Below are positions 10,352 to 13,966 of a stretch of DNA of 41,039 bases, piece after piece; within the stretch, counting starts at the first letter, position 1; the number at the start of each line of letters is the position of its first letter. Origin of the DNA: a virus; IMG/VR virus record IMGVR_UViG_3300026187_000001. One strand, given 5' to 3'. Both the position numbers and the translations under genes were made by a program. The notes under the pieces are model-generated. The model saw nothing but the letters and a program-made list of their open reading frames with translations. It was not told the DNA's origin and made no database searches.

Positions 10352-11172
10352 TGGGCTATGAAGTAATAAAAACATTCGGGTCTAGTGTTAATAAAAAATC
10401 TGACTCTAGATGGGAGACTATTAAAGAGTATAGTTCAGACTTACTCGAAAAAGGTACGAGTGCTGCAACTGCAGTAGGTGAGTCTGTAGGCAAAGGTCTA
10501 GACTTTGTACAGGATGTAGGTGAGAAAGCTTACGAGGGTGTTCAAGTAGCATCCTCTACCCCTGTACGTACTATGCTTGAAGACATCTTTGTTCCTAAGT
10601 TTATAACAGGTGACATTACTGAGTCTAACTTTAGCCCTGAAGCTATGGATGTACTACGTAAAGCTGCACTAGATAAGAACTTGAAACCTGGAAAACCTGT
10701 AAAGTTATCTTATAAGGACTACAACAAATACGGTGCTAAGATTTCTGCTGCATTCTTCGGTAGTAATGTTGCTGATGACACTGCTAGTCTGAAAGAAAAA
10801 CTAAAGAACATCACACCTGCTGATGAATTAAAGATGACACTAGGTGAAATACTTGTAAGTGTAGACGAAGATGGTAACATCACTGCACAAGACCAGTATG
10901 ACTTCAACAGTTGGACACACTTCGGTAGAGGAAAAGACAAGTCAGGTCGATACCGTAACCTTAGTGCAGAGGAGTTTGAGAACTCAGGTATACCCTTCAT
11001 GGAAGCTGTAATGGACTCTGTGAAGAATGCACCATCTGATTATCAAATGATTCGTAACCTTGCGTTCTTGTTCGGTAGTCGAGACTATGAAGGAACAGAG
11101 CGTGACACAGGCCGTAAGGTCGTACTTAACTTAGGCAAGAATGATCAACAAATAGCTATGGCAGGTAACTAA
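10351..11172 (+). CDS. Hypothetical protein, probably virion-associated (273 aa)
   Basis: Its ATG overlaps the previous stop (TAATG). The function is assigned from position only. Confidence 0.5.
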   Translation: MGYEVIKTFGSSVNKKSDSRWETIKEYSSDLLEKGTSAATAVGESVGKGLDFVQDVGEKAYEGVQVASSTPVRTMLEDIFVPKFITGDITESNFSPEAMDVLRKAALDKNLKPGKPVKLSYKDYNKYGAKISAAFFGSNVADDTASLKEKLKNITPADELKMTLGEILVSVDEDGNITAQDQYDFNSWTHFGRGKDKSGRYRNLSAEEFENSGIPFMEAVMDSVKNAPSDYQMIRNLAFLFGSRDYEGTERDTGRKVVLNLGKNDQQIAMAGN

Positions 11173-11618
11173 TGGGATATGTTTTAGGTAATCGAAGTAA
11201 AGAGAAACTTGAAGGTGTGAACCCACGGCTAGTAGCTGTAGTGGAGAGAGCTATTGAGCTATCTGAGCAGGACTTCTCTGTGATCTGTGGTCTACGTACC
11301 ATTCAGGAACAGGAAGCCTTGGTCGCTAAAGGTGCATCACAAACCATGAAGTCTAAACACCTTGAAGGTAATGCTGTAGACCTTATGGCTTGGGTTGACG
11401 GTGGTCGTTGGGAACTGAACTTGTACGACGAAATAGCTGATGCAATGCTCAAGGCAGCTAAAGAACTAGGAGTCACTATCCGTTGGGGTGCTGCATGGCA
11501 CAAGGCTCTTAATGATTGGGATGGTACGGCAGAAGACTTGATGAATGAGTACATAGACATTCGTCGTTCTGCAGGGCGTAGACCCTTCATTGATGCCCCA
11601 CATTTCGAGGTTCTATAA
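11172..11618 (+). CDS. Endolysin, peptidase M15 (VanY / L-alanyl-D-glutamate peptidase type), 148 aa
   Basis: Zinc-ligand pattern SKHLEGNAVDL plus the C-terminal DAPHFE, typical of M15 cell-wall peptidases. There is no signal peptide. Confidence 0.85.
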   Translation: MGYVLGNRSKEKLEGVNPRLVAVVERAIELSEQDFSVICGLRTIQEQEALVAKGASQTMKSKHLEGNAVDLMAWVDGGRWELNLYDEIADAMLKAAKELGVTIRWGAAWHKALNDWDGTAEDLMNEYIDIRRSAGRRPFIDAPHFEVL

Positions 11619-11620
11619 TC

Positions 11621-11851
11621 ATGTACGAGATGATAGACTTATTCATGCAATGGTTAGTAGCTCCTATTATTGTTGTAGTGTGGGTTCTGTTTAATAAAGT
11701 AAACAAGAACGAAAGAGACATTGCAGTAATACAAGCGCAACATGAGTCCTCTAAAACATCTTATGATCGTGAGATGAAAGAGATGAAAGAAACAATCAGA
11801 GCAATCTTCAATAAGCTAGACAATATAGAGCAAGCATTGCGAGATAGATAA
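11621..11851 (+). CDS. Small membrane protein, holin candidate (76 aa)
   Basis: One N-terminal TM helix (WLVAPIIVVVWVLF) followed by a charged coiled-coil tail. It lies immediately after the endolysin. Confidence 0.5.
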   Translation: MYEMIDLFMQWLVAPIIVVVWVLFNKVNKNERDIAVIQAQHESSKTSYDREMKEMKETIRAIFNKLDNIEQALRDR

Positions 11852-12312
11852 TGGACCCAGTTACCATAATCACAGGAGCCACTGTCGCATTTAACGCCCT
11901 CAAGAAAGGGTTTGCTGTAGGCAAGGACTTACAAGATATGGGTAGCCAACTAACCAAGTGGGCAGGTCATATGGCTGATCTTGGTCAGGCTGAGAAACAG
12001 GTCAAGAATCCCCCTTGGTGGAAGTCAATCGGAGGCTCTGTAGAGGCTGAAAGTCTGGAAGTTTTCGCTGCAAAGCGTAAGGCAGAGGCCATGAGAAAAG
12101 AACTCAAGGACTATATAAGTTTCACGATGGGGCCATCTGCATGGGACGAGCTTGTAGCTATTGAGGCTAAGATTCGTAAGCAGAAAAAAGAACACGAGTA
12201 TCGTAAGGCAGAACTACAAGAAGCCATCATTACTTGGACAATATCAGGACTACTATTACTATCAGGTATTGGTGCGATTATATTCTTTGCGTGGTTCTTC
12301 GCCAACAGATGA
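11851..12312 (+). CDS. Tail-anchored membrane protein of unknown function (153 aa)
   Basis: C-terminal TM helix (ITWTISGLLLLSGIGAIIFFAWFF). ATGA-type coupling with its neighbours. Confidence 0.5.
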   Translation: MDPVTIITGATVAFNALKKGFAVGKDLQDMGSQLTKWAGHMADLGQAEKQVKNPPWWKSIGGSVEAESLEVFAAKRKAEAMRKELKDYISFTMGPSAWDELVAIEAKIRKQKKEHEYRKAELQEAIITWTISGLLLLSGIGAIIFFAWFFANR

Positions 12313-12413
12313 TTAAGATAGGTGATAAGTATTACGTGTTCGACAAGAACGGAAAGATACTTATCATTACAAGAAACAGACGAATAGCTGAGAGAGTAGA
12401 AAATGGTAGTTGA
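12309..12413 (+). CDS. Possible 34-aa ORF (MIKIGDKYYVFDKNGKILIITRNRRIAERVENGS)
   Basis: It is below the track cut-off. Its ATG overlaps the previous stop (ATGA) and it fills an otherwise empty 90-nt gap. Confidence 0.35.
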   Translation: MIKIGDKYYVFDKNGKILIITRNRRIAERVENGS

Positions 12414-12723
12414 TTTCGATATTGATGGTGACGGTAAGATCACTGAGCAAGAAGTAGCAATGAAGGAACGTATGCTTGAGATAGAGCTACGTGAAGAGAA
12501 AGCAGAGTCGCAGAAGTTCATGGCTTGGGTAGCTATGGGTATGATGATTATCTTTACTGTGTTCTTGTTTACTCCATTCATGTCAGACTCTCGTGTATCT
12601 GCACTAGCTGATCTACTAGGTCTATTCTACATTGCACAGACAGGTGTTGTTGCAGCGTATATGGGTGCTACTGCGTACATGGCAGGTAAGCCTATGGGTA
12701 ACAAGGTGGCAATGAGTAAATGA
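12403..12723 (+). CDS. Two-TM membrane protein with an N-terminal canonical EF-hand loop; holin/antiholin candidate (106 aa)
   Basis: Residues 6-18, DIDGDGKITEQEV, satisfy every position of the PROSITE EF-hand loop pattern. Two hydrophobic helices follow (FMAWVAMGMMIIFTVFLFTPF and LLGLFYIAQTGVVAAYMGATAYMA). Confidence 0.6.
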   Translation: MVVDFDIDGDGKITEQEVAMKERMLEIELREEKAESQKFMAWVAMGMMIIFTVFLFTPFMSDSRVSALADLLGLFYIAQTGVVAAYMGATAYMAGKPMGNKVAMSK

Positions 12724-13094
12724 GGTGGTTAGTCTTAGCTCTGTTCCTGTCTGGTTGTTCTCAGATTCCATCCTTTCTCATGGGAGGTGGGGGTGGACCG
12801 AATGTCGCAGCAAATGTACAGGCAGGAAAGACTAACTCTCAGACAGTTGGAACTACGAACAACTCTGATCAAGAAGTGGTAGTGGATACACTGACAGGTG
12901 ACCTGAAACAGAGCAACGACACAAACAAAGTAAACACAGATAGCGTAGAAAATATAAACATAAATGAAATACCGCCGTGGGTCTTGATCCTTCTAGTGCT
13001 AGGTTGGTTAGCCCCTAGTCCACAAGAAATGGGACGTGGTTTACTTACTCTAATAGCAACACTAAGGAGAAAGAGTGATGGCAGCAAGGCTTAA
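12720..13094 (+). CDS. Unimolecular spanin (u-spanin) candidate: lipoprotein with a C-terminal TM anchor (124 aa)
   Basis: Signal peptide plus lipobox MRWLVLALFLSGC, a polar Gly/Asn/Thr-rich middle, and a C-terminal TM (IPPWVLILLVLGWLAP) followed by basic residues. This is the same architecture as phage T1 gp11. Confidence 0.6.
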   Translation: MRWLVLALFLSGCSQIPSFLMGGGGGPNVAANVQAGKTNSQTVGTTNNSDQEVVVDTLTGDLKQSNDTNKVNTDSVENININEIPPWVLILLVLGWLAPSPQEMGRGLLTLIATLRRKSDGSKA

Positions 13095-13329
13095 CAAAGC
13101 TAAGATGAAATGTAATAGTCCACGGACTACACCTAAACATCCAACTAAATCTCATGTAGTAAAGGCGTGTGTGAATGGTAAAGAAAAGATTATTCGATTC
13201 GGTCAGAAAGGTGTCAAAGGCAGTCCTAAAGGTAGCGCAAGAAATAAAGCGTTTCGTGCTAGACATGCTAAGAACATTAAAAAGGGAAAAATGAGTGCAG
13301 CATACTGGGCTGCGAAAGTGAAGTGGTGA
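13078..13329 (+). CDS. Small basic conserved protein (83 aa)
   Basis: ATG 13078 lies 8 nt after aaggag; the track start at 13075 is a GTG. The protein is Lys/Arg-rich and ends KMSAAYWAAKVKW. Confidence 0.6.
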   Translation: MAARLNKAKMKCNSPRTTPKHPTKSHVVKACVNGKEKIIRFGQKGVKGSPKGSARNKAFRARHAKNIKKGKMSAAYWAAKVKW

Positions 13330-13330
13330 G

Positions 13331-13519
13331 ATGTGGGTAGGAATATTATTAGTTTGCTTCGATCCTATGGCACTATCTTGCAGGATCATAGCAAAGCCTG
13401 AACCATTCTATAGTGAGCAAGCTTGCCTAGAGGAAGCAGAACAGATAGCTATGGATATAAGAAGAGGCGGTGCTTATGTTACACCACACTGTCACAAAGT
13501 CGAAGGGAGTAGTACGTAA
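13331..13519 (+). CDS. Small Cys-containing protein with a hydrophobic N-terminus (62 aa)
   Basis: Tightly packed between its neighbours (TGAgATG upstream, TAATG downstream). Confidence 0.5.
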   Translation: MWVGILLVCFDPMALSCRIIAKPEPFYSEQACLEEAEQIAMDIRRGGAYVTPHCHKVEGSST

Positions 13520-13692
13520 TGGCTAAGAGTCCAACACCTACAAATCCGAAGCTATGGTCACGAGCCAAGGCAGAAGCCAAGAAGAAGTTCAAGGTCTACC
13601 CTTCAGCATACGCTAATGCATGGGCCGCTAAGTGGTACAAATCCAAGGGCGGTGGTTGGCGAGGCAAAGACAACAGAGTAAAGAAAGCGTAG
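13519..13692 (+). CDS. Small basic protein, 57 aa, not in the ORF track (MAKSPTPTNPKLWSRAKAEAKKKFKVYPSAYANAWAAKWYKSKGGGWRGKDNRVKKA)
   Basis: Translated by hand. Its ATG overlaps the previous stop (TAATG). It shares the SAY..WAAK motif with the 13078 gene. Confidence 0.6.
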   Translation: MAKSPTPTNPKLWSRAKAEAKKKFKVYPSAYANAWAAKWYKSKGGGWRGKDNRVKKA

Positions 13693-13694
13693 TC

Positions 13695-13928
13695 ATGGCT
13701 AAGAAAGGTGGACTAGGCAAGTGGTTCGGGGAGAAGTGGGTTGACGTTAAAACAGGAAAGCCATGTGGCAGGTCAGGGAAAAACGATAAGCGCAAAAGCT
13801 ACCCTGCATGTCGCCCTAAAGCAGTTGCAGGAAGAATCTCAAAGAGTGAAGCAAGGAAAAAGACAGGACCGAAACGAGTGAGTTGGTCAGTCACTGCTTC
13901 AGGTAAAAAGAGAAAAAAGAAAACATAA
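13695..13928 (+). CDS. Small basic protein (77 aa), MAKKGGLGKWFGEKWVDVKTGKPCGRS...YPACRP
   Basis: Start refined to ATG 13695, 2 nt after the previous stop. The track start at 13632 would overlap the 57-aa gene. The tail is Lys-rich (KKRKKKT). Confidence 0.6.
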   Translation: MAKKGGLGKWFGEKWVDVKTGKPCGRSGKNDKRKSYPACRPKAVAGRISKSEARKKTGPKRVSWSVTASGKKRKKKT

Positions 13929-13930
13929 AA

Positions 13931-13966
13931 GAAAACCCCCAAGGAGAAATCCCTGGGGGTTTTTTC
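13931..13966. terminator. Bidirectional rho-independent terminator between the convergent arms
   Basis: gAAAACCCCCAaggagaaatcccTGGGGGTTTTTTc: a GC-rich stem flanked by an A-run on one side and a T-run on the other. It sits exactly between the last plus gene (stop 13928) and the last minus gene (stop 13967). Confidence 0.85.

Follow-up and report, generated by a model that had tools for sequence, protein, structure and literature searches.

A conserved EF-hand loop precedes a two-helix membrane hairpin in a protein family of phage lysis cassettes

Introduction

Class II holins, such as S21 68 of phage 21, have two transmembrane (TM) helices and an N-in/C-in topology, and the timing of known holins is governed by protein concentration and membrane potential. 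In phage T4, holin T is restrained by the antiholin RI, whose globular periplasmic domain senses the signal. As a rule, lone EF-hands form pairs, and in such pairs the hydrophobic residue at loop position 8 forms a bridge between the two loops. In the eukaryotic single-pass protein STIM1, whose EF-SAM domain lies in the lumen of the endoplasmic reticulum and responds to calcium loss, the state of a calcium loop near a TM helix governs the oligomeric state of the membrane protein, according to passages of PMC11785200. Here we describe EFTM (a name coined here), a gene at positions 12403 to 12723 of a 41,039-nucleotide stretch of viral DNA (IMG/VR record IMGVR_UViG_3300026187_000001; the whole stretch is called the window below), whose product carries an EF-hand loop ahead of two hydrophobic helices and which lies in a lysis cassette. 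The window phage is an uncultured roseophage related to CRP-4 and the SIO1 group. A note made earlier from the DNA letters alone (the original prediction) knew of no described holin with an EF-hand; we likewise found no paper on a holin or antiholin with an EF-hand, full-text literature searches that paired holin or antiholin with EF-hand or calcium-binding returning only endolysin calcium sites and unrelated papers, and found no ion-sensing holin or antiholin described in the searchable literature.

Like class II holins, EFTM is small, with two TM helices, a short predicted periplasmic turn, a basic C-terminal tail predicted to be cytoplasmic, a small-residue face on one helix, and a gene that stands beside endolysin and spanin genes. 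It differs from them in having no sequence relation to any named holin family and, by its predicted topology, in an acidic cytoplasmic N-terminal extension of about 38 amino acids that holds the EF-hand loop; that it may form holes is our reading of its sequence. Like RI, it is a small separate membrane protein of the lysis system, one of its domains could serve to sense a signal, and its gene often accompanies that of a distinct holin family. The two proteins share no sequence similarity, however, the sensor of EFTM would be a cytoplasmic calcium loop, and inhibition by EFTM is only a proposal. The likeness to STIM1, which is not homologous to EFTM, is likewise proposed and concerns the working principle only.

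EFTM carries an EF-hand loop ahead of a membrane hairpin

The EFTM open reading frame (ORF) was present exactly as originally predicted, and its 106-amino-acid product reads MVVDFDIDGDGKITEQEVAMKERMLEIELREEKAESQKFMAWVAMGMMIIFTVFLFTPFMSDSRVSALADLLGLFYIAQTGVVAAYMGATAYMAGKPMGNKVAMSK (translation of 12403-12723, plus strand). Since an in-frame TAG lies at 12397-12399, two codons 5' of the ATG, M1 is the true N-terminus; a GAGAG stretch is found 7 to 13 nucleotides 5' of the ATG. At its other end, the stop codon overlaps the start of the spanin gene (ATGA at 12720-12723). A candidate promoter 5' of the gene, TCGACA-16-TATCAT at 12340-12367, was not used as evidence, sites of this kind numbering 9 in the region against 7.1 in shuffles. 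The features of the gene and its product are as follows:

12403-12723, plus strand: EFTM gene, encoding an EF-loop two-TM protein of 106 amino acids (ORF list; phrog_27150, unknown function, E=7e-13)
12418-12456, plus strand: EF-hand loop, residues 6-18 (DIDGDGKITEQEV), with predicted ligands D6, D8, D10, K12 (backbone), T14 and E17 and structural residues G11 and I13
12445-12516, plus strand: exit or juxtamembrane helix, residues 15-38, highly charged, predicted to be continuous with TM1
12517-12579, plus strand: TM1, residues 39-59, opening with a conserved M-A-W motif (hydropathy, family alignment)
12580-12600, plus strand: short turn, residues 60-66, poor in basic residues and predicted to be periplasmic
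12601-12678, plus strand: TM2, residues 67-92, with an invariant small-residue face of A84, A85, G88 and A91 (family alignment, hydropathy)
12679-12720, plus strand: basic C-terminal tail, residues 93-106 (3 Lys), predicted to be cytoplasmic

As the original prediction had stated, residues 6-18 fit every constrained position of the PROSITE pattern PS00018, which we coded as a regular expression. At the residue level, an EF-hand is a 12-residue loop with oxygen ligands at positions 1, 3, 5, 7 (backbone), 9 and 12 (a bidentate Glu), a Gly at position 6 and a hydrophobic residue at position 8. The EFTM loop, DIDGDGKITEQE, has all of these, and the logo of the family is likewise canonical. Only 39 of 200,000 shuffles of EFTM match the pattern; the number of matches expected in all long window ORFs together is about 0.07, and EFTM is the sole match among window ORFs of at least 60 amino acids. 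Canonical EF-hands (PS00018, PF00036; calmodulin site I, EhCaBP1) share with EFTM the 12-residue loop, the full ligand pattern, Gly6, hydrophobic 8, Glu12 and, by prediction, the helical exit, but in EFTM the loop is fused directly to a TM helix and scores below the Pfam cut-offs. Pfam EF-hand_1 gave E=9.5e-4 and 19 bits, under its 25.4-bit cut-off, since the alignment is confined to the loop and the first part of the exit helix; EF-hand_1, 5 and 6 all match this same segment, each under its cut-off, and EF-hand Pfam matches were obtained in 19 of 23 family members, every one of them sub-cut-off. The best sequence matches of EFTM in the PDB are the EF loops of EhCaBP1, centrin and calmodulin site I, over about 17 residues and with E values of 0.06 or worse.

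Because only five residues (MVVDF) precede the loop in the window subfamily, EFTM appears to be a loop plus exit helix and not a full helix-loop-helix. The exit helix is predicted. Canonical EF-hands come in pairs, but the EFTM chain has a single loop, and any pairing would be between chains; only the metagenome representative P0251, a natural variant in which two tandem EF loops stand ahead of the same TM hairpin, has two.

The two helices that had been placed after the loop were recovered both as Kyte-Doolittle peaks (residues ~39-59 and 65-92) and in an AlphaFold model (helices 15-56 and 62-94) of modest confidence, with a mean predicted local distance difference test (pLDDT) score of 64. 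The model of P0251, built on a 45-sequence alignment, reached a mean pLDDT of 80.5 (hairpin, 86-98) and has a short helix at 36-43 before the conserved loop and a helix at 53-105 after it; the exit helix is predicted by the modeling to run unbroken into TM1. Foldseek searches returned nothing under E=0.5 for the EFTM model against BFVD and only generic Rop-like hairpins (E>4) for the P0251 model against the PDB, a two-helix hairpin being uninformative in such a search. We then considered 101 representatives of no more than 50% mutual identity, whose loops had been picked by a regular expression far looser than the distribution observed. The first loop residue, D1, is separated from the M-A-W start of TM1 by 34 residues in 64 of these and by 36 residues in 20, a fixed spacing that suggests mechanical coupling. 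Over 76 representatives, lysine and arginine together average 3.6 among the 15 residues that precede TM1, 0.8 within the turn and 3.1 along the C-terminal tail. By the positive-inside rule the topology is predicted to be N-in/C-in, and the EF loop would therefore face the low-calcium cytoplasm.

The loop is the most conserved element of a large phage family

The original prediction had held that homologues lacking the loop would mark the motif as a chance hit. Instead, PS00018 is matched in 117 of 120 close homologues, in which the unconstrained loop positions vary freely, and the loop is kept in 99 of 100 loci that were retrieved by TM-region patterns alone, the exception having an ambiguous base. 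Across the 101 representatives, D1, D/N3, D/N/S5 and V/I/L8 are each found in 100%, G6 and E12 in 96% and T/S/D9 in 95%, while positions 2, 7, 10 and 11 are free, with high entropy. In 45 divergent members with a mean column identity of 25%, no column is invariant other than D1, G6 and E12 of the loop; D5 of the loop is near-invariant, and so are M and W in the M-A-W motif with which TM1 opens. The same is seen at the level of codons: in 31 unique DNA sequences of the window subfamily, D6, G11, T14 and E17 each remain one amino acid encoded by 2 to 4 synonymous codons, whereas residues 12, 15 and 16 each take 5 amino acids. The HTVC008M subfamily (DTNGDGKVSxxEH) misses PS00018 at position 13 only, which is not a ligand position. 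The loop is under selection and is the most conserved element of the family. The motif is short and its Pfam scores lie under the gathering cut-offs, but the rarity of matches among shuffles, the presence of the loop throughout the family, where it holds the invariant columns, and the synonymous codon variation at fixed ligand residues rule out a chance occurrence in an acidic N-terminus, which we regard as very improbable.

In the metagenome representative P0266, an N-terminus like that of CRP-1 gp57 joins EFTM at residue 19 or 20, with loss of the EF loop; the join reflects either a deletion in nature or a chimera of assembly.

A profile search for EFTM gave at least 7,998 clusters at 90% identity, and an exhaustive HMMER search gave, at 50% identity, 3,930 clusters with E<=1e-3 and 501 with E<=1e-10. 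Close homologues (85 to 98% identity) are plentiful in marine metagenomes and occur in Roseobacter phages CRP-9 and CRP-1; in CRP-1 the homologue is gp56, directly before endolysin gp55 and spanin gp54. More distant members that share the protein layout are found in CRP-207, Limnohabitans phage DC31, Sinorhizobium phages phiM12 (SmphiM12_165), phiN3, phiM7 and phiM19, and Pelagibacter phage HTVC008M. The phiM9 paper holds no data on the phiM12 homologue. On the cellular side, 185,579 species genomes yielded 14 matches, all of them on contigs of metagenome bins and hence offering no prophage or cellular setting, and the family is therefore essentially confined to phages.

EFTM is linked to lysis cassettes of unrelated designs

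The original prediction had placed the gene between an endolysin and a spanin candidate. Both were confirmed, and two further membrane-protein ORFs that it had left out were found between the endolysin and EFTM:

11172-11618, plus strand: soluble M15-peptidase endolysin, without an N-terminal TM or signal-arrest-release segment (phrog_465, E=2e-52)
11621-11851, plus strand: 76-amino-acid protein, an alternative holin candidate, in which a single N-terminal TM is followed by a charged coiled-coil tail (weak holin/spanin PHROG matches only)
11851-12312, plus strand: 153-amino-acid protein with a C-terminal TM (phrog_32327, function unknown; no Pfam match)
12720-13094, plus strand: spanin, a lipoprotein (lipobox LSGC) with a C-terminal TM (NCBIfam NF037952 spanin2_3, E=4e-30, above cut-off; phrog_1804)

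The gene of the 76-amino-acid protein starts 3 nucleotides past the endolysin stop, and the 153-amino-acid protein opens with a conserved amphipathic 'MDPxTI...' segment. Since the M15 endolysin and the confirmed spanin flank its membrane-protein genes, EFTM sits in a lysis cassette. Large virion proteins, including internal virion proteins, are encoded upstream of this cassette, and small basic proteins are encoded 3' of the spanin.

We then asked what surrounds EFTM elsewhere. In 100 loci, ORFs were called and the neighbors were labeled by iterated profiles made from a small panel, key members of which were checked against Pfam and PHROGs. An endolysin, spanin or GTA_holin_3TM gene lies within three genes of EFTM in 69 of the 100 loci, and in 52 a lysis-type gene directly adjoins it; where three or more genes flank EFTM on both sides, as they do in 69 loci, a lysis-type gene lies within three genes in 51. 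After dereplication at 70% identity, 23 clusters were left, of which 11 have a lysis gene, 8 the 153-amino-acid family, 5 GTA_holin_3TM and 5 a baseplate context; in about 5 of the 23, the small reference panel recognized no neighbor. The gene orders observed were the following:

Design A (the window): M15 endolysin, 76-amino-acid protein, 153-amino-acid protein, EFTM, one-part spanin
Design B (CRP-1 type): 153-amino-acid protein, x, EFTM, M15, spanin
Design C: T4-type lysozyme, EFTM, Rz (phrog_739), Rz1 (phrog_812)
Design D: EFTM, GTA_holin_3TM (PF11351, E=1e-15 to 2e-20; phrog_3427 'holin'), Phage_lysozyme
Design E: EFTM, 153-amino-acid-like protein, i-spanin, o-spanin
Design F (T4-like): gp26 hub, gp51, EFTM, gp29-like protein
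Loci of the T4-like type: L005 2459-2791 (HTVC008M), L004 2342-2761 (phiM12), L065, L068, L094, L099, L100 and L103

The endolysin and spanin partners vary with the design, the former being M15 or T4-type lysozymes and the latter one-part or Rz/Rz1 spanins, and the EFTM family is linked to lysis cassettes across four unrelated designs. The 153-amino-acid family is a second conserved component of these cassettes. EFTM is a real, unnamed and very abundant family of phage lysis-cassette proteins with an EF-hand loop as its hallmark. All 63 neighboring endolysins lack an N-terminal hydrophobic segment; they are soluble and therefore need a holin for their export.

In one group of loci, a DUF1353 (PF07087) gene directly follows EFTM (L009, 5642-6094; L006, 6348-6830), the order being lysozyme, 58-amino-acid protein, i-spanin, o-spanin, EFTM and DUF1353.

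EFTM as a candidate holin with a proposed calcium switch

We tentatively favor reading EFTM as a holin or holin subunit, similar to those of class II, with a cytoplasmic calcium switch. This reading builds on a loop that exists and is under selection, on two hydrophobic helices and on the linkage to lysis cassettes. At 106 amino acids, with two hydrophobic helices and a charged, Lys-rich tail, EFTM has the makeup expected of a holin, and a class II assignment fits its size, predicted topology, basic tail and gene position, as well as design C and the L006/L009 group. As the adjacent endolysins are soluble, the holin needed would be one that makes large holes and not a pinholin. Of the holin reading put forward originally, the part that stood is that EFTM is a component of lysis cassettes, and across unrelated designs; as a holin it is one candidate among others, there being rival membrane candidates in the window and in other loci.

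We infer calcium binding, pairing of the loops, hole formation and the direction of the switch along the following lines. EFTM would accumulate in the inner membrane late in infection as a hairpin with both ends in the cytoplasm, where, at sub-micromolar free calcium, its acidic loops would be empty and the N-termini kept apart. Passages of PMC5615198 state that bacterial cytoplasmic calcium is held in the nanomolar range, and passages of PMC9132961 that periplasmic calcium tracks the outside level; any leak of the membrane would therefore load the loops. A first leak or depolarization would let calcium flow in down a steep gradient (from ~10 mM in sea water), calcium-filled loops would pair between subunits, the rigid exit helix would relay the change in the loop to TM1, and the remaining EFTM molecules would switch together, giving sharp, synchronous holes through which the soluble endolysin would be released. 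Calcium loading could thus act as a positive feedback for all-or-none triggering or as a signal of superinfection or damage. In P0251, the tandem loop would supply the pairing partner within one chain. Calcium may trigger lysis or restrain it, between which the sequence cannot tell. The analysis suggests, but does not prove, that calcium helps set the time at which EFTM phages burst their hosts. The proposition that the cytoplasmic EF-hand of this family reads an influx of calcium as a trigger or brake of lysis, calcium being a second messenger that sets burst timing, is a possible one, though less likely than not.

Several observations count against a calcium-switched holin. There is one loop per chain and the entering helix of the window subfamily has 5 residues, residues 1-20 are of low confidence in the AlphaFold model, and the affinity for calcium could be low. 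Of the top 149 representatives at 50% identity, about 42 are without the loop, and, although many of these are fragments, frameshifts or chimeras, P0254, P0257, P0269, P0300 and P0318 look full-length; the hairpin can therefore exist free of the loop, which would not be essential to the core function. The topology is predicted from the positive-inside rule only. No named family matches EFTM above threshold in Pfam, NCBIfam or PHROGs; NCBIfam has no match for EFTM or three divergent members, and the sole PHROG match is phrog_27150. Membership in PF07332 (Phage_holin_3_6, Holin-X / YqjE) was considered, one metagenome homologue having been auto-named YqjE, and was rejected. Weak matches to this family cover the charged juxtamembrane helix and the hairpin in 17 of 23 members (best E=1.2e-4), but all lie under the gathering score (15.5 bits against 28.4 for EFTM) and stem from a shared 'ELEEEKA'-like juxtamembrane stretch. 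In hhalign, EFTM reached a probability of 0.3 to 5% against a verified YqjE alignment of low diversity, with only 'ELEEEKA' aligning. The genomic context adds to these points. EFTM is one of three non-spanin membrane proteins in the window cassette; the 153-amino-acid family lies within three genes of it in 33 of the 100 loci, DC31 and CRP-1 included; and GTA_holin_3TM, a separate family with three TM helices per its Pfam name, shares its cassettes and is often its immediate neighbor, standing right beside it in 15 of the 100. In T4-like phages (HTVC008M, phiM12; 5 of 23 clusters), EFTM lies between the gp26/gp51 baseplate-hub genes and a gp29-like or tape-measure-like gene, and no lysis gene was found near it in these loci.

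With GTA_holin_3TM present, EFTM need not be the only hole-former, and with this and the 153-amino-acid partner it may be a regulator instead. As an antiholin or lysis-timing regulator, it would hold or release another holin by the calcium state of its cytoplasmic loop, with a logic like that by which RI restrains T; the true holin would be GTA_holin_3TM where present, or the 76- or 153-amino-acid protein of the window. A bona fide holin-family gene directly beside EFTM, the recurrence of the 153-amino-acid family, the occurrence of all three genes together in L052, L057, L081 and L084 and the two membrane proteins between the window endolysin and EFTM all speak for such a role, and dedicated sensor domains are typical of antiholins, as in T4 RI. 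We consider it nearly as likely as the holin reading, since many cassettes have a further gene of holin type. Some points count against it: every sequence hallmark of a class II holin is present in EFTM, the 153- and 76-amino-acid proteins belong to no known holin family either, and some cassettes offer no other holin candidate within three genes, namely, 2 of the 4 full-context loci of the 70% cluster of design C, which lack any other membrane-protein candidate over that distance, and all 6 loci of the L006/L009 group.

That EFTM acts in the lysis cassette while its loop is a constitutive structural metal site without a timing role, for instance one that holds a dimer, is unlikely. Such a site would follow from an N-terminus in the calcium-rich periplasm or from a cytoplasmic site that is always filled with magnesium. 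Acidic residues outnumber basic ones in the N-terminal region (12 D/E to 6 K/R), an excess that can favor export, and some loop-less representatives keep the hairpin, but the positive-inside count strongly favors a cytoplasmic N-terminus, and a periplasmic one would force the lysine-rich C-terminal tail across the membrane as well. Passages of PMC3123361 describe Dx[DN]xDG loops that stabilize structure through calcium in at least 12 unrelated protein contexts, many of them outside the EF-hand. Conservation alone does not separate a sensor from a structural site. Against this, E12 in 96% of representatives together with the canonical ligand set is of the calcium-responsive EF-hand type, and the fixed distance to TM1 suggests mechanical coupling. 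It is more improbable still that EFTM is no lysis protein at all and merely shares a late operon, serving in superinfection exclusion, host takeover or assembly of a tail or ejection channel. Its conserved place after gp51 in T4-like phages, the clusters (about 5 of 23, with the small panel used) in which no lysis neighbor was recognizable and the position of the window cassette after internal virion proteins would fit such a role. However, T4-like phages scatter their lysis genes anyway, as T4 does; in podovirus-like, HMO-2011-like and other contigs the constant neighbors of EFTM are endolysins and spanins of different families and not virion proteins; and in the window EFTM is translationally coupled to the spanin gene.

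Because the family is large and occurs in phages of dominant ocean bacteria, its mechanism bears on when a large fraction of marine bacterial lysis takes place. Members are carried, among others, by phages of the Roseobacter RCA lineage, by pelagimyophages that infect SAR11 (such as HTVC008M) and by freshwater and rhizobial phages. If EFTM is indeed a calcium-switched holin, it would be a clear case of calcium signaling inside bacteria, and lysis could be coupled to membrane damage or superinfection. This is directly testable, since the loop offers point mutants and external calcium can be adjusted, and members of the family occur in phages that can be cultured: phiM12 grows on S. meliloti, DC31 on Limnohabitans, and both CRP-1 and CRP-9 on RCA strains.

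Other features of the window

One of the small basic proteins after the spanin has 84 amino acids (13075-13329, plus strand; phrog_7595); conserved counterparts are found in CRP-207, in SIO1 and in Lentibacter and Celeribacter phages, and in several loci its gene adjoins the lysis cassette. Farther on, two neighboring genes for small basic proteins (13519-13692 and 13696-13928, both plus strand) match positions 1-44 and 46-90, respectively, of the Pfam DUF5872 profile. A frameshifted DUF5872 gene (listed ORFs 13519-13692 and 13632-13928) was considered and rejected: as an ATG at 13696 follows the first stop by 4 nucleotides, the halves are two adjacent genes, and DUF5872 appears to be split in the window. 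The plus-strand block ends as follows:

13932-13963, no strand assigned: strong G+C-rich hairpin of 14 base pairs, flanked by runs of A and of T, at the junction of convergent plus- and minus-strand gene blocks

This hairpin probably ends the late plus-strand operon and is likely a two-way terminator.

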